29,189 nt of DNA from a virus. Below are positions 1,970-29,189 of this stretch, one piece after another. Below the pieces are notes generated by a model that made no database searches, was not told the origin of the DNA, and worked only from the letters and a program-made list of their open reading frames with translations. The translations under genes and the position numbers were made by a program. The stretch lies in UHGV virus genome UHGV-0245401. One strand, 5' to 3'. Within the stretch, counting starts at the first letter, position 1. Each line of letters opens with the position of its first letter.

Positions 1970-2611
1970 ATGGAAAAAGTTATAATTGAGCTTGATAATC
2001 GTTGGGAGTTAGCTGATTTCGCGGTCTTAACGAAAGAGTATTTGCAGCTATATGGTTTTTTTTATGGCCTAAAAGGAGGATCAAGAGGATATTCAACAAT
2101 GCCTTGGGAGGGTGGGCACAGTGTGGTGAACTTTTTTAGAGGGGCTTACAGTGCGACTCCACCAGATTTACGTCCTGTAGTGAAAAAAATTCAGTATGCC
2201 TCTCCTGGCTTTATTGAATTGTCTGCTCTTATTGATATCTCTTGGCAGATTGCTGAGTTAGTTACTGCTGTTGGTGGAAGTATTCTGGCTGCCAACAAAG
2301 TTTACGATCAGGTGATGCGTACATATCGACAAAGAGAATGGGCAAAGTTGAAATCAGAGAAGCTGCGTATACAGAATCAAATTAAAGAGATTGAACTTGT
2401 TTCTGACGCAGTTAAATCACTTGAATCTGTGATGGCACTTAGTGAAGAACAACGTAAAAACTTGGTTCAACTATCGGGGGCAGATGAACTGGTTCAGTTA
2501 AAGATACTTTTGGCTGTTTACCGACGGTTATCTCCTCTTGTTGAGTTGCAAAACAGCGGGAAAGCTAATTTTTCTGCTGGGAAAAATAAAAATTTAAAAG
2601 CGTCCGATTAA
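1970..2611 (+). CDS. Hypothetical 213-aa protein of unknown function, an AT-rich moron between ogr and attP
   Basis: Uninterrupted 213-codon ORF in a visibly AT-rich island. GGTGG Shine-Dalgarno-like motif about 7 nt upstream of the ATG, with TATACT (-10-like) at 1926-1931. The C-terminal half is rich in K/E/L/Q heptad-like sequence and there is a hydrophobic stretch around aa 80-110. No family recognised. Confidence 0.65.
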   Translation: MEKVIIELDNRWELADFAVLTKEYLQLYGFFYGLKGGSRGYSTMPWEGGHSVVNFFRGAYSATPPDLRPVVKKIQYASPGFIELSALIDISWQIAELVTAVGGSILAANKVYDQVMRTYRQREWAKLKSEKLRIQNQIKEIELVSDAVKSLESVMALSEEQRKNLVQLSGADELVQLKILLAVYRRLSPLVELQNSGKANFSAGKNKNLKASD

Positions 2612-2619
2612 ACGGACGC

Positions 2620-2856
2620 TGAACGATGTGGACGCTATGTGGACAGCGGTTGACATAAATCCATTTATATCATCAGGTTAGGTGCTTTTTTGTGACACCA
2701 TCCCTGTCTTCCCCCACATGATGTGGGGGTTTTTTTTATCAATTACTTACATGCAATCAAAAGTAAAAACAGGTACTTATCGAAAGCTGTAAGGGTTTGG
2801 AGCGGTTTCAAAATTTCTTGAGTGTGGACACTATGTGGACACTCAGAGGGGGAAAT
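2620..2856. other. Putative attP region with integrase arm-type repeats (TGTGGAC-N4-TGTGGACA at 2627-2645 and 2823-2841)
   Basis: Two tandem TGTGGACA-type direct repeats flank about 170 bp directly downstream of the int 3' end. They resemble the arm-type Int sites I recall for P2, but the P2 core sequence itself is not present. Confidence 0.5.
2709..2738 (+). terminator. Hairpin plus T-run (CCCCCACAT-g-ATGTGGGGG-TTTTTTTT); terminator-like, possibly part of the att core
   Basis: Perfect 9-bp inverted repeat followed by eight T residues on the + strand. Confidence 0.5.
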
Positions 2857-3867
2857 TTATAACGTCACTCCGCCTTTTAGTGGATTCAGAGCGACGGCAT
2901 TTTGCAGATAGTCAGGCGCAAGGTGCGCATAGGCCATCGTCTGCTGAATGCTCGCATGTCCCAGAATCTGTTGCAGTGCGATTATATTGCCCCCATTCAT
3001 CATGAAATGGCTTGCGAATGTATGCCGCAGGATATGGGTTGCCTGATTGGGTGGTATATCAGGTTTCACTCTGCGTAAAATCCCGCAAAATTTCTCATAA
3101 TCAACTTTGAATAATTTGGCGCTGGCCTCCTCTTTAACTTTTTTCTCCAGTTCCTCAGAAATCGGCACGGTTCGCTTTTTACCGTTTTTGGTTTTCAGGA
3201 AGGTAACCCTGCAATTTGTAATCTGTGCTGGTTTTAGCGTGGCAACTTCCGTCCATCTTCCTCCAGTGCTCAGACATAAAAGCGCGACAAGTAAGTCATC
3301 ACCAGCCAAAACATTTAACAGTTTTTCGATTTCTGCTTTTTCCAGGAACGTCATTTCAGGGTTGGCCTCCGCCAGTGGCGGCAGTCCGTGAATTGGGTGT
3401 TGCCCGGAAAATTCATCCAATTGAATTAATTTTGTGAACATGCCGGATAATCGGTACATGTCACGGTTTATCGTTGCGGCACTGATACCATCACGTAGTC
3501 GCATGGAACGATAATCCATCAAAGCCCTTTTGCTCATCCTGTTCACTGGTATATCACCTATGCCGCTGATGGTTTTGAGTAGATGATTAAACTCTTTTGT
3601 TCCATGCTCGTGGTTTTGCCCGTGATATTTCCACCAGATGTCCAGCAACTCACTCAAAGTCCGGCGGTCTGCTCGCTGGCCTCCCCATTCTTTCTGACTG
3701 GCATTGGCGATTGTGTATCGCTCAAATGCTAGTGCTTCAGCTTTTCTTTCGAATTTCCTGCGGATGCGTTTTCCGTCGCGACCGCGAGGTCTAATGTCCA
3801 CTTCATAGCGACCATCATCGAGCTTCTTAATTGCCATAAGAAAGCCCTCCGGCGCTGTATTCACCAT
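2857..3867 (-). CDS. int: Tyrosine integrase (336 aa)
   Basis: C-terminal catalytic region …ATHILRHTFASHFMMNGGNIIALQQILGHASIQQTMAYAHLAPDY… is typical of the tyrosine-recombinase R-H-R-Y fold. Position between attP and repressor C matches P2. Confidence 0.92.
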   Translation of the reverse strand: MVNTAPEGFLMAIKKLDDGRYEVDIRPRGRDGKRIRRKFERKAEALAFERYTIANASQKEWGGQRADRRTLSELLDIWWKYHGQNHEHGTKEFNHLLKTISGIGDIPVNRMSKRALMDYRSMRLRDGISAATINRDMYRLSGMFTKLIQLDEFSGQHPIHGLPPLAEANPEMTFLEKAEIEKLLNVLAGDDLLVALLCLSTGGRWTEVATLKPAQITNCRVTFLKTKNGKKRTVPISEELEKKVKEEASAKLFKVDYEKFCGILRRVKPDIPPNQATHILRHTFASHFMMNGGNIIALQQILGHASIQQTMAYAHLAPDYLQNAVALNPLKGGVTL

Positions 3868-4611: not shown

Positions 4612-4782
4612 ATGAATGAGCCGCGTTGTATTGCTCAGTTACTGCGTAACGAAAGCCCCAGGGCGATTGACTTCACCATCACCCACGGGAAGGGTCGCAA
4701 GGGAATCATTATCCGCACCAAAAAACAGAGTCCGTTAAAAAAGGCTCTGACCTTTCTGAAAAGCCGGAGGTTCTGGAAATGA
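4612..4782 (+). CDS. Small hypothetical protein in the orf78 position, 56 aa
   Basis: ORF between cox and B, starting 3 nt after the cox stop. Start chosen by position only. Confidence 0.4.
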   Translation: MNEPRCIAQLLRNESPRAIDFTITHGKGRKGIIIRTKKQSPLKKALTFLKSRRFWK

Positions 4783-5279
4783 CAGTGATGACGCTCAATC
4801 TCGTCGAAAAACAGCCAGCAACTATGCGCCGGATAATTGGTAAGCATCTGGCCGTCCCTCGCTGGCAGGATACATGTGATTATTATAATCAGATGATGGA
4901 GCGCGAACGGTTAACGGTTTGCTTTCATGCGCAGTTAAAACAGCGTCACGCAACGATGCGTTTTGAAGAAATGAACGACGTCGAACGTGAACGGCTGGTT
5001 TGTGCAATTGATGAATTGCGTGGGGCATTCTCAAAACGCCGTCAGGTTGGCGCAAGTGAGTATGCATATATTAGTTTTTTAACAGTCAGTCAGCGTCGTA
5101 CTTTATTTATGCATGCCGGATTGACTGAAAAAGAATTCAACCAGCCATACTGGCGAATTAATGAAGAGTCATGTTACTGGCGTGATGCTTTATTCCGTGC
5201 ATTACGTGAATTATTCAGCCTGTTTGAGTATGCACCGACAATTCTGACGTCGGTAAAACCAGAGCAATATCTGCATTAA
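4779..5279 (+). CDS. B: Replication protein B (166 aa)
   Basis: 166-aa ORF, the same length and position as P2 B, overlapping the previous stop (ATGA). Confidence 0.85.
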   Translation: MTVMTLNLVEKQPATMRRIIGKHLAVPRWQDTCDYYNQMMERERLTVCFHAQLKQRHATMRFEEMNDVERERLVCAIDELRGAFSKRRQVGASEYAYISFLTVSQRRTLFMHAGLTEKEFNQPYWRINEESCYWRDALFRALRELFSLFEYAPTILTSVKPEQYLH

Positions 5280-6365: not shown

Positions 6366-8631
6366 AGCCTCCGGGCGTTTTGTCCCTCCGTCAGCATTTG
6401 CCGCAGGCACCGGTAAGGCGTTTACCGGTGCTTATGCATGGAACGCGCCACGCGAGGCTGTCGGGCGCGAAAGACCTCTTACACGTGACGAGATGCGTCA
6501 GGTGCAAGGTGTTTTATCCACGATTAACCGCCTGCCTTACTTTTTGCGCTCGCTGTTTACTTCACGCTATGACTACATCCGGCGCAATAAAAGCCCGGTG
6601 CACGGGTTTTATTTCCTCACATCCACTTTTCAGCGTCGTTTATGGCCGCGCATTGAGCGTGTGAATCAGCGCCATGAAATGAACACCGACGCGTCGATGC
6701 TGTTTCTGGCAGAGCGTGACCACTATGCGCGCCTGCCGGGAATGAATGACAAGGAGCTGAAAAAGTTTGCCGCCCGTATCTCATCGCAGCTTTTCATGAT
6801 GTATGAGGAACTCAGCGATGCCTGGGTGGATGCGCATGGCGAGAAAGAATCGCTGTTTACGGATGAGGCGCAGGCTCACCTCTATGGTCATGTTGCTGGC
6901 GCTGCACGTGCTTTCAATATTTCCCCTCTCTACTGGAAAAAATACCGTAAAGGACAGATGACCACGAGGCAGGCATATTCTGCCATTGCCCGTCTGTTTA
7001 ACGATGAGTGGTGGACTCATCAGCTTAAAGGCCAGCGTATGCGCTGGCATGAAGCGTTACTGATAGCTGTCGGGGAGGTCAATAAAGACCGTTCTCCTTA
7101 TGCCAGTAAACATGCCATTCGTGATGTGCGTGCGCGCCGCCAGGCAAATCTGGAATTTCTTAAATCGTGTGACCTTGAAAACAGGGAAACCGGCGAGCGC
7201 ATCGACCTTATCAGTAAGGTGATGGGCAGTATTTCTAATCCTGAAATTCGCCGGATGGAGCTGATGAACACCATTGCCGGTATTGAGCGTTACGCCGCCG
7301 CAGAGGGTGATGTGGGGATGTTTATCACGCTGACCGCGCCGTCAAAGTATCACCCGGCACGTCAGGTCGGAAAAGGCGAAAGTAAAACCGTCCAGCTTAA
7401 TCACGGCTGGAATGATGAGGCATTTAATCCAAAGGATGCGCAGCGATATCTCTGCCGTATCTGGAGCCTGATGCGCACGGCATTCAAGGATAATGACTTA
7501 CAGGTCTACGGTTTGCGTGTCGTCGAGCCACACCACGACGGAACGCCGCACTGGCATATGATGCTTTTTTGTAATCCACGCCAGCGTAACCAGATTATTG
7601 AAATCATGCGTCGCTATGCGCTCAAAGAGGATGGCGACGAAAGAGGAGCCGCGCGAAACCGTTTTCAGGCAAAACACCTTAACCGGGGCGGTGCTGCGGG
7701 ATATATCGCGAAATACATCTCAAAAAACATCGACGGCTATGCACTGGATGGTCAGCTCGATAATGATACCGGTAGGCCGCTGAAAGATACTGCGGCGGCT
7801 GTTACCGCATGGGCATCAACGTGGCGCATCCCGCAATTTAAAACGGTTGGCCTGCCGACAATGGGAGCTTACCGTGAGCTACGTAAATTGCCTCGCGGCG
7901 TCAGCATTGCTGATGAATTTGACGAACGCGTGGAGGCTGCACGCGCCGCCGCAGACAGTGGCGATTTTGCGCTGTATATCAGCGCGCAGGGCGGGGCAAA
8001 TGTCCCGCGCGATTGTCAGACTGTCAGGGTCGCCCGTAGCCCGTCGGATGACGTTAACGAATACGAGGAAGAAGTCGAGAGAGTGGTCGGCATTTACGCG
8101 CCGCATCTCGGCGCGCGTCATATTCATATCACCAGAACGACGGACTGGCGCATTGTGCCGAAAGTTCCGGTCGTTGAGCCTTTGACTTTAAAAAGCGGCA
8201 TCGCCGCGCCTCGGAGTCCTGTCAATAACTGTGGAAAGCTCACCGGTGGTGATACTTCGTTACCGGCTCCCACACCTTCTGAGCACGCCGCAGCAGTGCT
8301 TAATCTGGTAGATGACGGTGTTATCGAATGGAGTGACCCGGAGGTCGTGATGGCGCTCAGGGGCGCATTAAAACACGGACTGAGAACACCAAATCGTCAG
8401 CAAAGAAACGGAAGCCCGTTAAAACCACATGAAATTGCACCATCGGCCAGACTGACCCGGTCGGAAAGAATGCAAATTACCCGTATCCGCGTTGACCTCG
8501 CTCAGAACGGTATCAGGCCGCAACGATGGGAGCTTGAGGCGCTGGCGCGTGGCGCGACCGTAAATTATGACGGGAAAAAATTCACGTATCCGGTTGCTGA
8601 TGAGTGGCCGGGGTTCTCGTTACCCATTTGA
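6355..8631 (+). CDS. A: Replication initiator A, rolling-circle nickase
   Basis: Large ORF with the HUH-type motif …GTPHWHMMLF… and the active-site tyrosine motif …AGYIAKYISKNIDG…. Start taken at MAVKASGRF (6355) rather than the upstream in-frame ATG at 6313. Confidence 0.9.
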   Translation: MAVKASGRFVPPSAFAAGTGKAFTGAYAWNAPREAVGRERPLTRDEMRQVQGVLSTINRLPYFLRSLFTSRYDYIRRNKSPVHGFYFLTSTFQRRLWPRIERVNQRHEMNTDASMLFLAERDHYARLPGMNDKELKKFAARISSQLFMMYEELSDAWVDAHGEKESLFTDEAQAHLYGHVAGAARAFNISPLYWKKYRKGQMTTRQAYSAIARLFNDEWWTHQLKGQRMRWHEALLIAVGEVNKDRSPYASKHAIRDVRARRQANLEFLKSCDLENRETGERIDLISKVMGSISNPEIRRMELMNTIAGIERYAAAEGDVGMFITLTAPSKYHPARQVGKGESKTVQLNHGWNDEAFNPKDAQRYLCRIWSLMRTAFKDNDLQVYGLRVVEPHHDGTPHWHMMLFCNPRQRNQIIEIMRRYALKEDGDERGAARNRFQAKHLNRGGAAGYIAKYISKNIDGYALDGQLDNDTGRPLKDTAAAVTAWASTWRIPQFKTVGLPTMGAYRELRKLPRGVSIADEFDERVEAARAAADSGDFALYISAQGGANVPRDCQTVRVARSPSDDVNEYEEEVERVVGIYAPHLGARHIHITRTTDWRIVPKVPVVEPLTLKSGIAAPRSPVNNCGKLTGGDTSLPAPTPSEHAAAVLNLVDDGVIEWSDPEVVMALRGALKHGLRTPNRQQRNGSPLKPHEIAPSARLTRSERMQITRIRVDLAQNGIRPQRWELEALARGATVNYDGKKFTYPVADEWPGFSLPI

Positions 8632-19944: not shown

Positions 19945-20853
19945 ATGCCGATTATCGACCTGAACCAGCTACCCGCACCGGATGTGGTCGAGGAGCTGGA
20001 CTTTGAAACCATTCTTGCCGAACGCAAGGCGACACTGATTTCCCTTTACCCGGAAGACCAGCAGGAGGCGGTCGCCCGTACCCTGACGCTGGAATCTGAG
20101 CCTCTCGTCAAACTGCTGGAGGAAAATGCTTATCGTGAGCTTATCTGGCGTCAGCGTGTGAATGAGGCCGCACGGGCGGTGATGCTGGCCTGTGCCGCCG
20201 GTAATGACCTTGATGTGATTGGTGCCAATTACAACACCACGCGCCTGACTATCACCCCGGCAGATGATTCGACCATCCCGCCGACACCGGCAGTGATGGA
20301 GTCTGACACCGATTATCGTCTGCGTATTCAGCAGGCGTTTGAAGGTTTAAGCGTCGCCGGGTCGGTGGGTGCCTATCAGTATCATGGCCGCAGTGCCGAC
20401 GGGCGTGTCGCGGATATTTCTGTCACCAGTCCGTCTCCGGCCTGCGTCACTATCTCTGTGCTGTCACGTGAAAATAACGGTGTCGCATCCGAAGACCTGC
20501 TGGCCGTGGTGCGTAACGCCCTGAATGGCGAGGACGTCAGGCCGGTGGCCGACCGCGTGACCGTGCAGTCTGCCGCCATCGTTGAATACCAGATAAACGC
20601 CACGCTTTACCTTTACCCTGGTCCCGAAAGCGAACCCATCCGCGCTGCCGCCGTGAAAAAACTGGAAGCGTATATCACGGCACAGCACCGGCTGGGGCGC
20701 GATATCCGTCTGTCTGCCATTTATGCCGCTTTGCATGTGGAAGGTGTGCAGCGTGTCGAACTGGCTGCACCGCTGGCTGACATCGTGCTCAACAGTACGC
20801 AGGCGTCTTTCTGTACCGAATACAGCGTCGTGACCGGAGGCTCGGATGAGTGA
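19945..20853 (+). CDS. J: Baseplate protein gpJ (302 aa)
   Basis: 302 aa, in the P2 J position. Confidence 0.9.
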   Translation: MPIIDLNQLPAPDVVEELDFETILAERKATLISLYPEDQQEAVARTLTLESEPLVKLLEENAYRELIWRQRVNEAARAVMLACAAGNDLDVIGANYNTTRLTITPADDSTIPPTPAVMESDTDYRLRIQQAFEGLSVAGSVGAYQYHGRSADGRVADISVTSPSPACVTISVLSRENNGVASEDLLAVVRNALNGEDVRPVADRVTVQSAAIVEYQINATLYLYPGPESEPIRAAAVKKLEAYITAQHRLGRDIRLSAIYAALHVEGVQRVELAAPLADIVLNSTQASFCTEYSVVTGGSDE

Positions 20854-21457
20854 TTCGCGACTGCTGCCGACCGGCTCATCACTGCTTGAAGTTGCCGCCG
20901 CAAAAGCCTGTGCGGAAATTGAAAAAACGCCGGTCAGTATTCGTGAGCTGTGGAACCCGGACACCTGCCCGGCAAATCTGCTGCCGTGGCTGGCGTGGTC
21001 ATTTTCGGTTGACCGCTGGGATGATAAATGGCCGGAAGCGACAAAACGCGCTGTTATCCGCGATGCGTATTTCATTCACTGCCATAAGGGCACTATAGGC
21101 GCAATCCGGCGTGTGGTGGAGCCGCTCGGCTATCTGATTGAGGTGAGGGAGTGGTGGCAGCTCAACGAGGAGCCGGGGACGTTCCGTATCGTTGTTGGCG
21201 TGCTTGAGCAGGGTATTACCGAAGAAATGTATCAGGAGCTGGAGCGCCTAGTTGCTGATGCAAAACCGGCAAGCCGCCATCTGACGGGACTGGCTATCAG
21301 TTTAAGTACAACCGGCAACATTTTTGCCGGTGCGGGATGCTATCACGGTGACGCCCTGACGGTTTATCCCTACACCCCGGAGGCCATTATTGTCGGAGGG
21401 GATTATTTCCCGGCCTCGGCCATTCATTTAATTGATAACCTGAGAGTAAACGCATGA
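20846..21457 (+). CDS. I: Baseplate protein gpI
   Basis: [22 protein letters not shown]…, overlapping the J stop. Confidence 0.88.
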
Positions 21458-22614
21458 CAGTGAAATACTACGCCATTCTGACTAATCAGGGCGCAGCACG
21501 GCTGGCTAACGCGACGATGCTCGGCAGTAAGCTGAATCTGACGCAAATGGCCGTTGGTGATGCGAATGGTGTCTTGCCGACACCAGACCCGGCACAGACA
21601 AAACTGATTAACCAGAAACGCATCGCGCCGCTGAATCTTCTGAGTGTTGACCCGAACAACCAGAGCCAGATTATTGCGGAGCAAATCATCCCTGAGAACG
21701 AGGGCGGATTCTGGATCCGTGAGATTGGGCTTTATGATGATGAAGGCGTACTCATTGCGGTGGCGAACTGCCCGGAAACGTACAAACCGCAGTTGCAGGA
21801 AGGCAGTGGTCGTACCCAGACTATCCGCATGATTCTGGTTGTCACGAATACCGAAGCTATCACGCTGAAAATCGACCCGTCGGTGGTACTGGCGACCCGT
21901 AAATACGTGGATGATGAAGTCCTGGAATTAAGGCTGTATGTGGATGACCAGATGAGAAACCACATTGCCGCACAGGATCCTCATACCCAGTATGCGCAGA
22001 AACATAATCCGACATTTACCGGAGAACCAAAAGCGCCGACGCCTGCCGCAGGAAATAACACCACGCGGATTGCGACCACTGCGTTTGTTCAGGCCGCTAT
22101 TACCGCTCTGATTAACGGTGCGCCAGCCACGCTGGACACACTGAAAGAAATTGCCGCAGCCATTAACAATGACCCGAAATTCAGTACCACCATTAACAAT
22201 GCGCTGTCAGGTAAGCAGCCACTGGATGAGACGCTGACTCATTTGAGTGGAAAGGATGTAGCTGGTCTTCTCGCATACCTTGGTTTGGGAGAAGCGGCAA
22301 AACGGAATGTGGGAACAGGGGAAAATCAGATACCTGATATGTCATCATATGCATCAGGTTCAGGCTGGCGAAAAATGCCAGATGGTTCAATTGAACAGTG
22401 GGGACGAATTAGTTTTCCTGGTGAACACGGGCCTGTATCCGCCAATGTTTCATTCCCGATTCCATTTACACAGACACCGGGCATTGTAATTGTGTGCGAT
22501 GGTGGTTTCGGGGGCGGGAATATGTGGGGGGCGACCAACTGGAGCACTACCGGCTTCATAGCTCACTGCAATTATGGTCTTGAAGGTGGTGCGTTTTTCG
22601 CTAAGGGCTGGTAA
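21454..22614 (+). CDS. H: Tail fibre protein gpH (386 aa): conserved N-terminal part plus a variable C-terminal tip encoded inside the invertible segment
   Basis: N-terminus [42 protein letters not shown]… is the conserved P2-family H domain. The C-terminal ~115 aa lie beyond the crossover site at 22268-22293. Confidence 0.88.
22268..22293 (+). other. hix/gix-like 26-bp inversion crossover site inside H (TTCTCGCATACC-TT-GGTTTGGGAGAA)
   Basis: Two 12-bp half-sites with 10/12 dyad symmetry around a central TT. Its 3' 14 bp are identical to the inverted partner at 24093-24118. Confidence 0.65.
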
Positions 22615-23057
22615 TGATGAAATATCTGTACGTAAACAACCTGGCATATCCTTACGAACTTCAGTCTCTTTATGTTGAAAAAGGTGAATGGCCTGAAGAA
22701 AAAGGTGTTGATATAGACGAAGTAATTTTCAGGGAATATTTCTATGACACACCACCAGAAGGAAAATACAGATGTGTTGGAGAAGATGGACTGCCTGCAT
22801 GGGCAGATATTCCTCCACCAACACGTGAAGAACAAATTGCATCAGCCGAAACTAAAAAGCAGCAATTGATTAATCAGGCCAACGATTATATGAACAGTAG
22901 ACAATGGGTTGGTAAAGCGGCTATTGGTCGTCTGAAAGGTGAGGAACTGGCGCAATATAATTTGTGGCTGGATTATCTGGACGCACTGGAGCTGGTCGAT
23001 ACTTCCAGTGCACCAGATATTGAATGGCCTACTCCTCCGGCAGTTCAGGCCAGATGA
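22614..23057 (+). CDS. G: Tail fibre assembly chaperone (Tfa, P2 G-like), paired with the currently expressed fibre tip
   Basis: 147 aa with a C-terminal Tfa signature …LWLDYLDALELVDTSSAPDIEWPTPP…. AT-rich 5' half. Confidence 0.85.
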   Translation: MMKYLYVNNLAYPYELQSLYVEKGEWPEEKGVDIDEVIFREYFYDTPPEGKYRCVGEDGLPAWADIPPPTREEQIASAETKKQQLINQANDYMNSRQWVGKAAIGRLKGEELAQYNLWLDYLDALELVDTSSAPDIEWPTPPAVQAR

Positions 23058-23640
23058 CATCCGGCGCGGTGCTGGTATCTGTTGCCGTCACCGCGTCAAT
23101 GTAATCCAGCACCGTGTTAAGTCGGCTGGTTTCTGCCTGCGTCAGATTCCGTCCGGCCCGTAATTTCAGTTGAATCAGACTGATGGAAGCCATTGCAGTA
23201 TCAATCAGCGACTGGCGTTGTGCTTCTGCTGCATCTACTGCGGCGCTATGCTGTGCATCGGTATCCGTCACCCATTTCTCACCATCCCATTTATCGTATG
23301 GTGTTAACGGGGCGATAGTGGTTGTATTATCAGGGTAATCACCCGGAGCTGTGATTTCTTTTGATTCTCCTGTTTCGGTGCTAAAGACGATTTCACCGCG
23401 ATGGTCTGGCACATATTCCCATGAGTTAAAATCTGCAGAACGGCAGATTGCATAACCAGCCTTATGTGTAACTGGTGCATCTAAACAAGAACATGCCGGG
23501 ATACCGACGCCAACCGTAAGATATTCAGTTGATGTGGAAATATATTCCCGCGTTTCTCCGTTGTAGTTGTAAACGGTAATGAAGCCAGCCTCTGTGGCAA
23601 ATCCGTTTTCATCCAAAGTGATTTTTTTTGTGGTCATCAT
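23029..23640 (-). CDS. Alternative tail fibre assembly chaperone (Tfa') on the opposite strand inside the invertible segment
   Basis: 203 aa with a C-terminal Tfa signature …LNTVLDYIDAVTATDTSTAPDVIWPELPEE. Convergent with G and overlapping it by 29 bp. Confidence 0.8.
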   Translation of the reverse strand: MMTTKKITLDENGFATEAGFITVYNYNGETREYISTSTEYLTVGVGIPACSCLDAPVTHKAGYAICRSADFNSWEYVPDHRGEIVFSTETGESKEITAPGDYPDNTTTIAPLTPYDKWDGEKWVTDTDAQHSAAVDAAEAQRQSLIDTAMASISLIQLKLRAGRNLTQAETSRLNTVLDYIDAVTATDTSTAPDVIWPELPEE

Positions 23641-24146
23641 GCTGCCCTTACAATGTAGTTAAATGCAATGTTACGTGGCCTTGTTTCTGCTGATGTTCTT
23701 GCACTCCTGGATAAATCAAGTGTCACACCATAGTAACTAAATGCATTACCAGTTGATGGAGCGGCATATTTAACCCCAGAACTAGAACCAACATTAAAAA
23801 CTCCAGATGCTGAGGAAGCTGACCCCATAGTGTTATCAATCAGAGAACCCGTAACATTTTGCATAGCGTCAAGTTGTTCGCTTAATAAAGCGCGTCCACT
23901 ATCAACATCACGCCCGTCATCCCAGCCACGAATAAATTCACCTCGTAAATCAGGCAATTTATTTGTCGGATAAGCCTTTGCCAGTTCCGGGTATTCTTCA
24001 GCAGAAAAAAACGCACCGTTGCATTTCAGCCAGCCTGTTGGCGGAGTGGTGGAAGGCCACGGAACAGGCACGCCAACGGGTAATGCCGAACCTTCTCCCA
24101 AACCAACGTTTAAGAAAATGCAGAGATTACGGCTAACTGGCATCAT
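23637..24146 (-). CDS. Alternative tail-fibre C-terminal tip (Hv'), promoterless in this orientation
   Basis: …LPDLRGEFIRGWDDGRDVDSGRALL…RPRNIAFNYIVRAA resembles variable tail-fibre tips of Mu/P1-type invertible systems. Its 5' end carries the partner crossover site in the same frame (…GLGE…) as in H. Confidence 0.7.
   Translation of the reverse strand: MMPVSRNLCIFLNVGLGEGSALPVGVPVPWPSTTPPTGWLKCNGAFFSAEEYPELAKAYPTNKLPDLRGEFIRGWDDGRDVDSGRALLSEQLDAMQNVTGSLIDNTMGSASSASGVFNVGSSSGVKYAAPSTGNAFSYYGVTLDLSRSARTSAETRPRNIAFNYIVRAA
24093..24118 (-). other. hix/gix-like inversion crossover site, inverted partner of 22268-22293
   Basis: The minus strand reads TTTTCTTAAACG-TT-GGTTTGGGAGAA. The right half is identical to the site in H and the left half is a degenerate copy. 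Confidence 0.6.
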
Positions 24147-24173
24147 CCCCGGTTTTTATTCAGGGGATCCATC

Positions 24174-24356
24174 ATGCTTATTGGCTATGTCCGCGTGTCA
24201 ACAAATGACCAGAATACGGAATTGCAGCGTAACGCGCTGGAGTGCGCAGGATGTGAGCTGATTTTTGATATTGGCCTGTCCACGCTCTATAAAAAATTCC
24301 CCTCATCAGCGACAAAGAATAAATTGTGTCATCCCTTAGCCAACCGGGACAAATAG
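24174..24356 (+). pseudogene. Remnant of a Hin/Gin/Pin-family serine DNA invertase with an in-frame internal deletion, 60 aa remaining
   Basis: N-terminus MLIGYVRVSTNDQNTELQRNALECAGCELIF matches the invertase N-terminus including the catalytic serine, and is fused directly to a C-terminal …LSTLYKK… segment. About 130 aa of catalytic and dimerisation domain are missing. Confidence 0.75.
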
Positions 24357-24415
24357 CCTGACATCTCCGGCACAACTGAAAATATCACTCACCCATTAAC
24401 CACGGAGTTAAACGG

Positions 24416-25606
24416 ATGAGTGACTATCATCACGGCGTGCAGGTGCTGGAGATTAACGACGGCACCCGTGTCATTTCCACCGTATCCACTGCCATTGTTG
24501 GCATGGTCTGCACGGCCAGCGATGCGGATGCGGAAACCTTCCCCCTCAATAAACCGGTGCTGATTACCAATGTGCAGAGCGCAATTGCAAAGGCCGGTAA
24601 AAAAGGCACGCTGGCGGCATCGTTGCAGGCTATCGCCGACCAGTCAAAACCGGTCACCGTTGTTGTGCGCGTGGAGGACGGCACCGGCGACGACGAAGAA
24701 ACGAAACTTGCGCAGACCGTTTCCAATATCATCGGCACCACTGACGAAAACGGTCAGTACACCGGACTGAAAGCCCTGCTGGCGGCAGAGTCGGTAACCG
24801 GTGTTAAACCGCGTATTCTTGGTGTGCCGGGACTGGATACCAAAGAGGTGGCTGTAGCACTAGCATCCGTCTGTCAGAAGCTGCGCGCTTTCGGGTATAT
24901 CAGCGCATGGGGCTGTAAGACCATTTCCGAGGTGAAAGCCTACCGCCAGAATTTCAGCCAGCGTGAGCTGATGGTCATCTGGCCGGATTTCCTCGCATGG
25001 GATACGGTCACCAGTACCACCGCCACCGCGTATGCCACCGCTCGTGCGCTGGGGCTGCGCGCTAAAATCGACCAGGAGCAGGGCTGGCATAAAACGCTGT
25101 CCAACGTCGGGGTGAACGGTGTTACCGGCATCAGCGCATCTGTATTCTGGGATTTGCAGGAGTCCGGCACCGATGCTGACCTGCTTAACGAGTCAGGCGT
25201 CACTACGCTGATTCGCCGCGACGGTTTCCGCTTCTGGGGTAACCGTACCTGCTCTGATGACCCACTGTTTCTCTTTGAAAACTACACCCGTACCGCGCAG
25301 GTGCTGGCCGACACGATAGCTGAGGCGCACATGTGGGCGGTGGACAAGCCCATCACCGCAACGCTGATTCGCGACATCGTTGACGGCATCAATGCCAAAT
25401 TCCGTGAGCTGAAAACAAACGGCTATATCGTGGATGGCTCATGCTGGTTCAGCGAAGAATCCAACGATGCGGAAACCCTCAAGGCCGGAAAACTGTATAT
25501 CGACTACGACTATACACCGGTGCCTCCTCTCGAAAACCTGACCCTGCGCCAGCGTATTACCGATAAATACCTGGCGAATCTGGTCACCTCGGTTAACAGC
25601 AATTAA
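24416..25606 (+). CDS. FI: Tail sheath protein gpFI (396 aa)
   Basis: 396 aa, MSDYHHGVQVLEINDGTRVISTVSTAIVGMV…, matching P2 FI. Confidence 0.93.
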   Translation: MSDYHHGVQVLEINDGTRVISTVSTAIVGMVCTASDADAETFPLNKPVLITNVQSAIAKAGKKGTLAASLQAIADQSKPVTVVVRVEDGTGDDEETKLAQTVSNIIGTTDENGQYTGLKALLAAESVTGVKPRILGVPGLDTKEVAVALASVCQKLRAFGYISAWGCKTISEVKAYRQNFSQRELMVIWPDFLAWDTVTSTTATAYATARALGLRAKIDQEQGWHKTLSNVGVNGVTGISASVFWDLQESGTDADLLNESGVTTLIRRDGFRFWGNRTCSDDPLFLFENYTRTAQVLADTIAEAHMWAVDKPITATLIRDIVDGINAKFRELKTNGYIVDGSCWFSEESNDAETLKAGKLYIDYDYTPVPPLENLTLRQRITDKYLANLVTSVNSN

Positions 25607-25618
25607 GGAGCCTGACCG

Positions 25619-26137
25619 ATGGCAATGCCGCGCAAACTCAAGTTAATGAACGTCTTTCTGAACGGCTACAGCTATCAGGGCGTCGCGAAGTCCGTCACGC
25701 TACCAAAACTGACCCGTAAGCTCGAAAACTATCGCGGTGCGGGGATGAACGGCAGCGCACCGGTAGACCTCGGCCTTGATGACGATGCGCTGTCAATGGA
25801 GTGGTCGCTCGGTGGCTTCCCGGATTCGGTTATCTGGGAGCTTTACGCCGCAACCGGTGTGGATGCCGTACCGATTCGTTTTGCAGGCTCTTACCAGCGC
25901 GACGATACCGGCGAAACGGTGGCCGTCGAGGTGGTCATGCGTGGACGTCAGAAAGAAATCGACACCGGCGAGGGTAAACAGGGAGAAGACACCGAGTCGA
26001 AAATCTCCGTGGTCTGCACCTATTTCCTGCTGACGATGGACGGTAAGGAGCTGGTCGAAATTGACACCATCAACATGATTGAGAAGGTGAACGGCGTCGA
26101 CCGGCTGGAGCAACACCGCCGCAATATCGGCCTGTGA
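25619..26137 (+). CDS. FII: Tail tube protein gpFII (172 aa)
   Basis: 172 aa, in the P2 FII position after the sheath. Confidence 0.93.
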   Translation: MAMPRKLKLMNVFLNGYSYQGVAKSVTLPKLTRKLENYRGAGMNGSAPVDLGLDDDALSMEWSLGGFPDSVIWELYAATGVDAVPIRFAGSYQRDDTGETVAVEVVMRGRQKEIDTGEGKQGEDTESKISVVCTYFLLTMDGKELVEIDTINMIEKVNGVDRLEQHRRNIGL

Positions 26138-26192
26138 TTTTCATCCGGTCAGCCAGGCTGACCGGTAACCCCGATTCAGAAGTGAGAAAACC

Positions 26193-26468
26193 ATGAACAA
26201 AGAAAATGTCATTACCCTGGACAATCCGGTCAAACGTGGTGAGCAGGTTATCGAACAGGTCACGCTGATGAAACCCAATGCCGGGACGCTGCGCGGTGTC
26301 AGTCTGGCTGCGGTTGCAAACTCCGAAGTCGATGCACTGATTAAAGTGCTGCCGCGCATGACGGCACCGATGCTGACCGAGCAGGAAGTCGCCGCGCTGG
26401 AACTGCCTGACCTTGTGGCGCTGGCCGGTAAGGTGGTCGGTTTTTTGTCGCCGAACTCGGTGCAGTGA
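26193..26468 (+). CDS. E: Tail assembly chaperone gpE (91 aa)
   Basis: 91 aa, upstream of the tape-measure gene, ending just after a TTTTTTG slippery heptamer. Confidence 0.88.
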   Translation: MNKENVITLDNPVKRGEQVIEQVTLMKPNAGTLRGVSLAAVANSEVDALIKVLPRMTAPMLTEQEVAALELPDLVALAGKVVGFLSPNSVQ

Positions 26469-26620
26469 CGTTCCCGAAAAATCTCTCGGTCGATGACCTG
26501 ATGGCGGATGTGGCAGTGATATTTCACTGGCCGCCATCAGAACTGTATCCCATGAGCCTGACCGAACTCATCACATGGCGCGAAAAGGCGCTCCGGCGAA
26601 GCGGAAACACGAATGAGTAA
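26193..26620 (+). CDS. E+E': gpE+E' fusion chaperone made by programmed -1 frameshift at TTTTTTG (26441-26447)
   Basis: Slippery heptamer near the 3' end of E. The -1 frame stays open to TAA at 26618-26620, overlapping the start of T. This is the conserved tail-chaperone frameshift arrangement. Confidence 0.6.
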
Positions 26621-29060
26621 CAATGTAAAATTACAGGTATTGCTCAGGGCTGTTGACCAGGCATCCCGCCCGTTTAAATCCATCCGCACAGCGAGCAAAT
26701 CGCTGTCGGGGGATATCCGGGAAACACAAAAATCACTGCGCGAGCTGAACGGTCAGGCGTCCCGTATTGAGGGATTTCGCAAGACCAGTGCACAGCTCGC
26801 CGTGACTGGTCATGCACTTGAAAAGGCACGGCAGGAGGCTGAAGCCCTTGCCACACAGTTTAAAAACACCGAACGTCCGACCCGTGCTCAGGCGAAAGTG
26901 CTGGAATCCGCAAAGCGTGCGGCGGAGGACTTACAGGCGAAATATAACCGCCTGACGGATTCCGTTAAACGCCAGCAGCGGGAACTGGCCGCTGTGGGAA
27001 TTAATACCCGCAATCTTGCACATGATGAGCAGGGACTGAAAAACCGTATCAGTGAAACCACCGCACAGCTTAACCGTCAGCGCGACGCGCTGGCGCGTGT
27101 CAGTGCGCAACAGGCAAAACTTAACGCAGTCAAACAGCGTTATCAGGCCGGAAAGGAACTGGCCGGAAATATGGCCTCGGTGGGCGCTGCCGGTGTGGGG
27201 ATTGCGGCGGCGGGAACGATGGCCGGAGTTAAGCTGCTGATGCCCGGTTATGAGTTTGCGCAGAAAAACTCAGAATTGCAGGCCGTGCTCGGAGTGGCAA
27301 AAGACTCCGCCGAAATGACCGCACTACGCAAACAGGCGCGCCAGCTCGGCGACAATACCGCCGCCTCGGCGGATGATGCGGCCGGTGCACAGATAATCAT
27401 CGCGAAAGCGGGTGGGGATGTTGATGCCATTCAGGCGGCAACGCCGGTCACGCTGAATATGGCGCTGGCGAACCGCCGCACGATGGAAGAAAACGCCGCC
27501 CTGCTGATGGGGATGAAATCCGCCTTTCAGCTTTCAAACGATAAGGTCGCTCATATCGGGGATGTTCTCTCCATGACGATGAACAAAACCGCCGCCGATT
27601 TTGACGGCATGAGCGATGCGCTGACCTATGCCGCACCTGTGGCAAAAAATGCCGGTGTCAGCATTGAAGAAACCGCCGCAATGGTCGGGGCGCTGCATGA
27701 TGCAAAAATCACAGGCTCAATGGCGGGGACGGGAAGCCGTGCCGTGTTAAGCCGCCTGCAGGCACCGACGGGAAAAGCATGGGATGCACTCAAAGAGCTT
27801 GGCGTGAAAACCTCAGACAGCAAGGGAAACACCCGGCCAATATTTACCATTCTGAAAGAAATGCAGGCCAGTTTTGAGAAAAACCGGCTCGGTACTGCCC
27901 AGCAGGCTGAATACATGAAAACTATTTTCGGGGAGGAGGCCAGCTCAGCCGCCGCCGTGCTGATGACTGCCGCCTCAACCGGAAAGCTGGACAAACTGAC
28001 CGCTGCGTTTAAAGCCTCAGACGGGAAGACCGCCGAGCTGGTAAATATCATGCAGGACAACCTAGGCGGTGACTTTAAAGAGTTTCAGTCCGCTTATGAG
28101 GCAGTGGGGACTGACCTGTTTGACCAGCAGGAAGGCGCGCTGCGTAAGCTCACGCAGACGGCCACAAAGTATGTGTTAAAACTCGACGGCTGGATCCAGA
28201 AAAACAAATCACTGGCGTCAACCATCGGCATCATTGCCGGTGGCGCGCTGGCGCTGACTGGCATCATCGGTGCCATTGGCCTCGTAGCCTGGCCGGTTAT
28301 CACCGGCATCAATGCCATCATCGCGGCAGCAGGCGCAATGGGGGCAGTCTTCACGACGGTTGGCAGTGCTGTTATGACCGCCATCGGGGCTATTAGCTGG
28401 CCGGTTGTGGCCGTGGTGGCCGCAATTGTCACCGGGGCGTTGCTTATCCGTAAATACTGGGAGCCTGTCAGCGCATTCTTTGGCGGTGTGGTTGAAGGGC
28501 TGAAAGTGGCATTTGCGCCGGTGGGGGAACTGTTCACGCCACTTAAGCCGGTGTTTGACTGGCTGGGTGAAAAGTTACAGGCCGCGTGGCAGTGGTTTAA
28601 AAACCTGATTGCTCCGGTCAAAGCCACTCAGGACACCCTGAACAGTTGCCGTGACACGGGGGGCATGTTCGGGCAGGCACTGGCTGACGCGCTGATGCTG
28701 CCGCTTAATGCGTTCAACAAACTGCGCAGCGGTATTGACTGGGTACTGGAAAAACTCGGTGTTATCAACAAAGAGTCAGACACACTTGACCAGACCGCCG
28801 CCAGAACTCAAGCCGCCACGTATGGCAGCGGTGGTTATATTCCGGCGACCAGCTCTTATGCAGGCTATCAGGCTTATCAGCCGGTCACGGCACCGGCTGG
28901 CCGCTCTTATGTGGACCAGAGTAAAAACGAATATCACATCAGCCTGACGGGTGGTACTGCGCCGGGGACACAGCTTGACCGCCAGTTACAGGATGCGCTC
29001 GAAAAATACGAGCGGGATAAACGTGCGCGCGCCCGTGCCAGCATGATGCATGACGGTTAA
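26613..29060 (+). CDS. T: Tail tape measure protein gpT (815 aa)
   Basis: 815 aa with a coiled-coil-rich N-terminal half and G/A-rich hydrophobic repeats, the same length as P2 T. Confidence 0.9.
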   Translation: MSNNVKLQVLLRAVDQASRPFKSIRTASKSLSGDIRETQKSLRELNGQASRIEGFRKTSAQLAVTGHALEKARQEAEALATQFKNTERPTRAQAKVLESAKRAAEDLQAKYNRLTDSVKRQQRELAAVGINTRNLAHDEQGLKNRISETTAQLNRQRDALARVSAQQAKLNAVKQRYQAGKELAGNMASVGAAGVGIAAAGTMAGVKLLMPGYEFAQKNSELQAVLGVAKDSAEMTALRKQARQLGDNTAASADDAAGAQIIIAKAGGDVDAIQAATPVTLNMALANRRTMEENAALLMGMKSAFQLSNDKVAHIGDVLSMTMNKTAADFDGMSDALTYAAPVAKNAGVSIEETAAMVGALHDAKITGSMAGTGSRAVLSRLQAPTGKAWDALKELGVKTSDSKGNTRPIFTILKEMQASFEKNRLGTAQQAEYMKTIFGEEASSAAAVLMTAASTGKLDKLTAAFKASDGKTAELVNIMQDNLGGDFKEFQSAYEAVGTDLFDQQEGALRKLTQTATKYVLKLDGWIQKNKSLASTIGIIAGGALALTGIIGAIGLVAWPVITGINAIIAAAGAMGAVFTTVGSAVMTAIGAISWPVVAVVAAIVTGALLIRKYWEPVSAFFGGVVEGLKVAFAPVGELFTPLKPVFDWLGEKLQAAWQWFKNLIAPVKATQDTLNSCRDTGGMFGQALADALMLPLNAFNKLRSGIDWVLEKLGVINKESDTLDQTAARTQAATYGSGGYIPATSSYAGYQAYQPVTAPAGRSYVDQSKNEYHISLTGGTAPGTQLDRQLQDALEKYERDKRARARASMMHDG

Positions 29061-29074
29061 GGAGGTGACGAAAA

Positions 29075-29189
29075 ATGATGCTCGCGTTAGGTATGTTTGT
29101 TTTTATGCGCCAGACGCTGCCACACCAGACCATGCAGCGTGAATCAGATTATCGCTGGCCGTCAAATTCCCGTATCGGTAAACGGGATG
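29075..29189 (+). CDS. U: Tail protein gpU, N-terminal part; continues at window position 1
   Basis: GGAGGTGA Shine-Dalgarno, then ATGATG…: MMLALGMFVFMRQTLPHQTMQRESDYRWPSNSRIGKRD, running off the window end in frame with positions 1-365. Confidence 0.85.
   Translation, partial: MMLALGMFVFMRQTLPHQTMQRESDYRWPSNSRIGKRD

Follow-up and report, generated by a model that had tools for sequence, protein, structure and literature searches.

A P2-like tail-fibre inversion cassette that retains its crossover sites and enhancer equivalent beside an internally deleted invertase gene and is probably inverted in trans

The best described relatives of the locus reported here are the G segment of phage Mu with its invertase Gin, the C segment of P1 and P7 with Cin, and the P segment of the e14 element with PinE. 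All of them have two inverted 26-bp crossover sites with a central AA or TT dinucleotide and an adjoining gene for a small serine invertase, with the recombinational enhancer in the 5' end of that gene, and in Mu G, P1 C and e14 P the invertible DNA encodes on its two strands alternative C-terminal ends of the fibre and a separate assembly protein for each. The same arrangement was found in the DNA analysed here, a stretch of 29,189 nucleotides recorded as virus genome UHGV-0245401 (hereafter the window, meaning the stretch at its full length), and its gene order is that of e14 (stf, tfa, tfa', stf', pin). Unlike the Gin, Cin and PinE systems, however, the window has lost invertase codons 32-168, so that the enzyme would have to come from elsewhere. 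Among P2-like elements, the prophage of E. coli ECJXMCRH7 and phage pro483 (ORF35) also place the invertase locus between the fibre cassette and the sheath gene FI, but their alleles, in contrast to that of the window, are full length (594 bp, 197 aa) and annotated as intact.

Cross-complementation between invertases of this kind has been known since the 1980s. In 1984 van de Putte reportedly found that e14 carries a function complementing Mu gin, and in 2006 Kutsukake is said to have shown that two invertases contribute to Salmonella flagellar phase variation, with Fin of Fels-2 acting across to the system served by Hin. It was also demonstrated that two enzymes from the Qin and Rac prophages, PinQ and PinR, act on the e14 P segment and invert it, so that the invertase of one prophage flips another element (PMC12529663), as we propose for the window; such published cross-acting enzymes make action in trans plausible here. 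In those cases the target keeps its own invertase or was deprived of it in the laboratory, whereas the loss in the window is natural, widespread and spares the enhancer. In the P2-like prophage cassettes of EPEC E2348/69 sequencing has shown that both orientations coexist within cultures, yet, unlike the situation in the window, this variation was ascribed to an invertase acting on inverted repeats and no invertase defect was reported (PMC4272514).

The window holds a complete P2-like genome of about 29.2 kb in circularly permuted form. When its end (29000-29189) is joined to its start (1-400), an intact gene U results, which along its full 462 bp is 96.8% identical to gpU of ECJXMCRH7. The genes D, ogr and int lie next to each other, which is the excised or phage form and not that of an integrated prophage. 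Two plus-strand ORFs, one between ogr and int (1970-2611, 213 aa) and one in the early region (4779-5279, 166 aa), gave no Pfam match at E <= 0.001; the former lies at a spot where P2-like phages often carry cargo or defence genes.

The cassette itself begins inside the tail-fibre gene H (21454-22614, plus strand; Pfam Phage_tail_fib and Gp53-like_C), which consists of a constant N-terminal part extending to the left crossover site and, beyond it, the first variable C-terminus. Site comparison and in-silico inversion place the left 26-bp site at 22268-22293, reading TTCTCGCATACC TT GGTTTGGGAGAA, and the right one at 24093-24118, reading TTCTCCCAAACC AA CGTTTAAGAAAA (inner half, central dinucleotide and outer half), and inversion at this position reproduces the arrangement of E. 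coli MNCRE44. The two sites are in inverted orientation with TT and AA at their centres; their inner halves are perfect inverted repeats and, counted with the central dinucleotide, give a shared perfect inverted repeat of 14 bp. The segment that they delimit (22280-24106, 1,827 bp including both central dinucleotides) is identical at 1827/1827 positions to the reversed segment of MNCRE44. Behind H, on the same strand, lies the assembly protein gene for the currently expressed fibre end (22614-23057; Pfam Caudo_TAP, E 3e-33). The minus strand carries an alternative assembly protein gene (23029-23640; Caudo_TAP, E 1e-32), which comes to stand behind H only after inversion and is found there, on the plus strand, in MNCRE44, together with a startless alternative fibre C-terminal exon resembling Sv' (23637-24104; Pfam Collar domain), whose mechanically called ORF extends to 24146. 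Inversion fuses this exon to the constant part of H, and both assembled forms of H are intact ORFs, that of the window having 386 aa and that of MNCRE44 431 aa. The cassette is in this way equipped with alternative fibre C-termini and their cognate assembly proteins on opposite strands, served by one shared constant N-terminal part. No functional invertase adjoins the segment, and no other serine recombinase was found in the window.

Between the tail-sheath gene (24416-25606) and the ORF for the C-terminal part of a tail fibre on the reverse strand (23637-24146), the window has a plus-strand ORF of 60 aa (24174-24356) encoding MLIGYVRVSTNDQNTELQRNALECAGCELIFDIGLSTLYKKFPSSATKNKLCHPLANRDK. Pfam searches, solved structures, alignments and the PGAP annotation of other genomes all identify it as the remnant, or pseudogene, of a Din-family serine DNA invertase. 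Residues 3-35 match the Pfam Resolvase profile at E 3.5e-6, which exceeds the curated cut-off, and the match covers profile positions 2-42 of 145; residues 30-44 resemble positions 30-44 of the 45 in HTH_7, weakly and below the cut-off (E 0.05; 14.2 bits against 23.8). The similarity to serine recombinases is also evident against solved Gin (whole-protein E 3e-18), in which residues 1-37 of the remnant correspond to Gin 1-37 and residues 26-45 to Gin 163-182, and the DNA-binding domain of Hin, again a solved structure, aligns to residues 27-51. The nucleophilic-serine motif of the N-terminus is present, MLIGYVRVSTNDQ being identical to Gin residues 1-13, and only two differences from solved Gin occur in the first 31 residues; position 9 is Ala in the solved Gin variant 3uj3. 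The earlier note on this DNA had correctly recognised a catalytic serine motif at the N-terminus, to which it should be added that the catalytic serine is residue 9, the equivalent of Gin Ser9 and Hin Ser10. Its placing of LSTLYKK in the extreme C-terminal region was right as regards the C-terminal origin, and can be refined, as this stretch is the recognition helix of the C-terminal helix-turn-helix and the sole surviving part of that motif.

In composition the remnant joins, in frame, residues 1-31 of a 197-aa wild-type protein, Ser9 among them, to residues 169-197 of that protein. What is missing, residues 32-168, comprises almost all of the catalytic domain, together with helix E and the larger part of the DNA-binding domain: a complete catalytic domain of about 140 aa with helix E, the dimer/tetramer interface, is absent, and of the three helices of the helix-turn-helix domain two are gone and the last stays. 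The view that the catalytic core and the dimer interface had been lost is borne out by these data. Since this part of the protein is missing, the 60-aa product cannot act as a recombinase, and the ORF is best regarded as a pseudogene derived from the Din/Hin subfamily.

That the ORF arose from a Hin/Gin/Cin/Pin-type invertase by an in-frame internal deletion had been proposed before, and alignment with full-length genes agrees with the Pfam and structure matches on this point and defines the endpoints. Compared with the genes of E. coli W12-1 and phage pro483, the flanks of which are 92-97% identical to the window, the remnant shows one gap of 411 bp (137 codons). The wild-type allele of ECJXMCRH7 (WP_000905097.1; 594 bp, 197 aa) has no substitution relative to window 24093-24416 in 324 retained bp, that is 100% identity, with exactly 411 bp missing from the window. 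Identity to ECJXMCRH7 runs over 176 bases from the left and 160 from the right, and the overlap of the two is a 12-bp direct repeat, GCTGATTTTTGA, a single copy of which is retained at the deletion junction (24257-24268, plus strand). In the wild-type gene copies of GCTGATTTTTGA occur at nt 84-95 and 495-506, the spacing of 411 bp being the deleted length, and this is the only repeat of at least 9 bp in the gene. As the two copies lie in the same frame, one encoding LIFE close to the N-terminus and the other LIFD within the DNA-binding domain, the deletion is in frame. We consider the deletion itself near certain, and its structure points to a single short-homology event, probably replication slippage or a similar pathway, by which the loss of 411 bp between two in-frame repeats would have destroyed the invertase gene. 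The ECJXMCRH7 prophage that supplied the wild-type allele is itself degraded in another way: according to the annotation its sheath gene is cut short, and ahead of U and D it lacks the genes for tube, tail assembly and tape measure (locus L030, 4035-4607).

A direct repeat flanking a deletion might also suggest an assembly collapse or sequencing artefact, in which the gene is really full length and a short repeat caused a mis-join. The repeat is the sole feature in favour of this, and 12 bp is far below read length or assembly k-mers. Moreover, when a 71-bp junction-specific query was run against 5,426 complete E. coli genomes, the junction was found in 25 of them, at 100% identity in 24 of the 25; the exact 60-aa protein occurs in 434 contigs of a protein collection and in 989 index blocks of public assemblies. 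The complete genomes are independent and come from many laboratories and platforms, and the recurrence of one junction in all of these sources led us to reject the artefact, which retains next to no probability. The allele, whose recurrence goes far past what chance would give, really exists and is in circulation. Among the carriers are clinical isolates, for example MNCRE44 (GCF_000931565.1), Y5 (GCF_001860505.1) and AR_0137 (GCF_002201835.1), and in the 24 carrier genomes that were fetched PGAP labels the allele as a recombinase pseudogene that is incomplete. No genome with the junction was found when the species-representative genomes were scanned, and the allele therefore appears to be confined to E. 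coli strains.

For comparison of the surroundings, 23 of the 25 carrier loci and further loci encoding the exact protein were fetched. The allele was found in no fewer than six prophage backgrounds, between which the sheath genes diverge by 2-3%. The remnant region itself shows 0-2 differences in 310 bases between backgrounds in which the sheath genes have 28-36 differences in 1,211; the exception is LD27-1, which has a diverged copy of the remnant with 4-6 differences in 310 bp.

The deletion has left the cis-acting parts of the system in place. The record of phage P7 annotates the enhancer at nt 19-86 of cin, and since the N-termini of the invertases align codon for codon with no indels, the Fis-dependent enhancer equivalent can be assigned by homology to 24192-24259 of the window, where 54 of 68 bases are identical to the P7 element. 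Two candidate Fis cores of the 15-bp G...C form were located by homology within the range 24174-24270, in which an enhancer had been expected, a proximal one at 24195-24209 (GTGTCAACAAATGAC) and a distal one at 24244-24258 (GCGCAGGATGTGAGC). They are 49 bp apart, centre to centre, and 96.5 bp separate the centre of the proximal core from that of the right crossover site. This geometry matches that of the Hin enhancer, which is 65 bp long, has a Fis site at each end and lies about 100 bp from hixL (PMC3798978), and the predicted binding of Fis follows from the homology. The distal candidate core is richer in G+C at its centre than the Hin site. It ends at the second base of the retained repeat, and wild-type identity continues to 24268, 9-10 bp past the end of the enhancer equivalent. 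Thus the enhancer equivalent, which had been described as partly retained, is retained in full, and all cis-acting parts, both 26-bp sites included, appear to have survived. A deletion that begins just past the enhancer and spares both sites would leave the cassette a substrate for an invertase.

Comparison of prophages that carry the same deletion indicates that the segment has indeed been inverted. Window 20174-28356 has 1,335 mismatches to MNCRE44 when compared as it is, and 0 in 8,183 after in-silico inversion at the site centres. A second prophage type, with a single tail-fibre assembly gene in the segment (one-TAP type), is represented by 18 genomes, of which 12 have one orientation and 6 the other. 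Fifteen of the 18 differ otherwise by 0-1 bases over 4.9 kb, the rest being GYB01 and TL-14, which have indels, and NRZ95651, which has 37 differences beside an IS insertion; both orientations are present in both of the tape-measure sub-variants of this type. Within it AR_0137 and Y5 show 0 mismatches in 7,071 after in-silico inversion, and their breakpoints are confined to four nucleotides, TTGG, which include the central dinucleotide. In the other pairs, NCTC10973 and the metagenome contig ERZ28757173 are identical at 1860/1860 positions when flipped, and 1332KP and JBAOOF01 at 1812/1833. Four different cassette types in all adjoin the same remnant, and each of them was seen in both orientations. 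On the indirect evidence of these orientation differences between genomes, the segment would invert by crossover at the site centres.

Some features of the one-TAP prophages were noted along the way. Their cassette (2171-3391 in the loci of AR_0137 and Y5, L004 and L005) is 1,197 bp long with one tail-fibre assembly gene, and its inner half-sites differ from each other at two positions. In one orientation an H of 431 aa is followed by the assembly gene, and in the other an H of 370 aa, with a C-terminus like gp53, is not followed by any assembly gene, and this fibre end may therefore fold without a dedicated chaperone. In NRZ95651 (NZ_OZ501671.1; locus L020, 4933-7071) an ISEc12 element of the IS21 family lies just past the sheath gene and, in the fetched stretch, replaces the tube gene and the tail genes that follow; this prophage copy is defective beyond the invertase.

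The earlier note had taken the cassette to be probably frozen, that is, with its invertase dead, the segment would be locked as in the window and the phage would make one fibre type only. Such a state would agree with a remnant that cannot be catalytically active and with the lack of a further serine recombinase gene in the window, as well as with the negative result for K-12-type pinE, for which a 66-bp probe (1e-13) that did find K-12 strains matched none of the 25 carrier chromosomes. A cassette can be frozen when the invertase gene next to it is lost, as in pinE deletion mutants the e14 P segment was found to be locked (PMC12529663). Deletion of the whole gene would also remove the enhancer, which might explain the locking, a link that is ours and not a claim of that paper; here, in contrast to a whole-gene deletion, the enhancer equivalent is spared. 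Against a frozen state stands the presence of an identical remnant beside both orientations in four cassette types, including the window's own, for which a fully matching flipped counterpart exists in MNCRE44. We therefore consider a locked segment quite improbable. The data point to the exception which the earlier note allowed, an invertase acting in trans, although the K-12 e14 pin that it had in mind was not detected in any of the 25 carrier chromosomes.

Both orientations could also have arisen with no inversion after the deletion, if the 12-bp repeats are a hotspot and prophages that had already been flipped each lost the 411 bp and were then frozen. Any slippage at the only repeat of this length in the gene would yield the same junction, and the spread over several prophage backgrounds with diverged sheath genes, together with the diverged copy in LD27-1, would fit such a history. 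It would, however, need at least eight independent and identical deletions, two for each of the four cassette types. Further, the 18 one-TAP prophages are all deleted and occur in both orientations, with no wild-type member among the carriers, and the two orientations recur within both tape-measure sub-variants. The low divergence of the remnant region, set against that of the sheath genes, is a better fit to one origin spread by recombination than to many origins. Recurrent deletion is for these reasons an unlikely source of the two orientations, and we hold inversion in trans after the deletion to be very likely.

Nor does the inversion seem to be the work of general recombination, whether homologous or by short homology, between the inverted repeats. 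The sites of the window, with their 14-bp perfect inverted repeat, would lend themselves to it, but those of the one-TAP type share just the four nucleotides TTGG around the crossover, and the breakpoints coincide with these. So short a match cannot sustain recombination by RecA, and homologous recombination is therefore not credible. In addition, the breakpoints lie at the central dinucleotide, where serine invertases cut, and the recurrence of the same dinucleotide in several lineages argues for a site-specific enzyme. General recombination was accordingly rejected as an explanation that is extremely improbable.

Three public records are irregular at or near the crossover sites. In KE137028.1 (GCA_000408365.1; locus L040, 3069-3918) a run of 850 N lies exactly between the crossover sites, with flanks 100% identical to the window, and this assembly break, bounded by the 14-bp inverted repeats, suggests that both orientations were present in the sequenced culture. 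The IMG/VR UViG 2671180841_000012 is 99.99-100% identical to the window and in the same orientation; at its right site (locus L041, about 8200-8212) the sequence is TTCTCCCAAACCAAGGTAT-NN, after which it switches abruptly to that of the remnant, GGTAT being the start of the flipped junction, which hints at either a mixed orientation or a mis-join. In CAXJPI010000001.1 (locus L035, 2100-2681) part of the segment stands reversed beside the constant part of H and is followed by the segment in forward orientation; this is a noisy assembly, of 97% identity and with many gaps, and the structure would be a partial duplication or a chimera of both orientations.

As to the source of the enzyme, a serine invertase of related type, produced elsewhere in the host cell, would invert the segment precisely at the central dinucleotide. 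Sequence resembling the deleted core is common in the species: it was found in 4,681 of the 5,426 E. coli genomes, and the median genome has two such places. In every one of the 25 carrier chromosomes a 250-bp core probe matched one additional place or more, as obtained from a search with the carrier anchor plus core probe minus one with the anchor alone; these are counts only, and the places may be partial genes or pseudogenes. The e14 K-12-type pin was rejected as the helper in these genomes, in view of the negative probe. From the orientation data we infer that the flips took place after the deletion and were made by a resident invertase together with Fis. A dead invertase gene with intact cis elements, and a cassette that is flipped in trans by a resident invertase, is the reading that we think likely.

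One may go further and propose that the deletion allele is a successful "dependent" form of the switch, which has shed the invertase and kept the sites and the enhancer. Under this proposal the allele would spread among P2-like prophages by recombination, and the remnant region would therefore be nearly identical (0-2/310) while the sheath genes differ by 2-3%. We regard it as doubtful. If it were true, host-range switching of the phage would be set by the invertases of the host's other prophages, for example by enzymes that phage attack induces, as PinQ was reported to be (PMC12529663).

Taken as a whole, the locus is best described as a natural, trans-dependent variant of the classical Din-type fibre cassette, with the crossover sites and the enhancer equivalent of that class present and an adjoining working invertase absent. 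The mechanism will be unsurprising to specialists, the biology is otherwise classical and the gain is incremental; what is new lies in the detail, namely a widespread allele, a single clean event that spares the enhancer, and public genomes in which switching is seen to continue. The 60-aa ORF is best annotated as a pseudogene, with its 5' part as a regulatory element, and the case is a warning that a pseudogene recombinase nearby does not justify calling an inverton "locked". A natural and widespread host-range cassette that has no recombinase of its own, keeps all cis elements in sequence and is evidently still switching makes the cross-talk between prophage invertases visible in ordinary genome data, and provides a clean natural substrate for finding the trans-acting resident invertases of clinical E. 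coli lineages.
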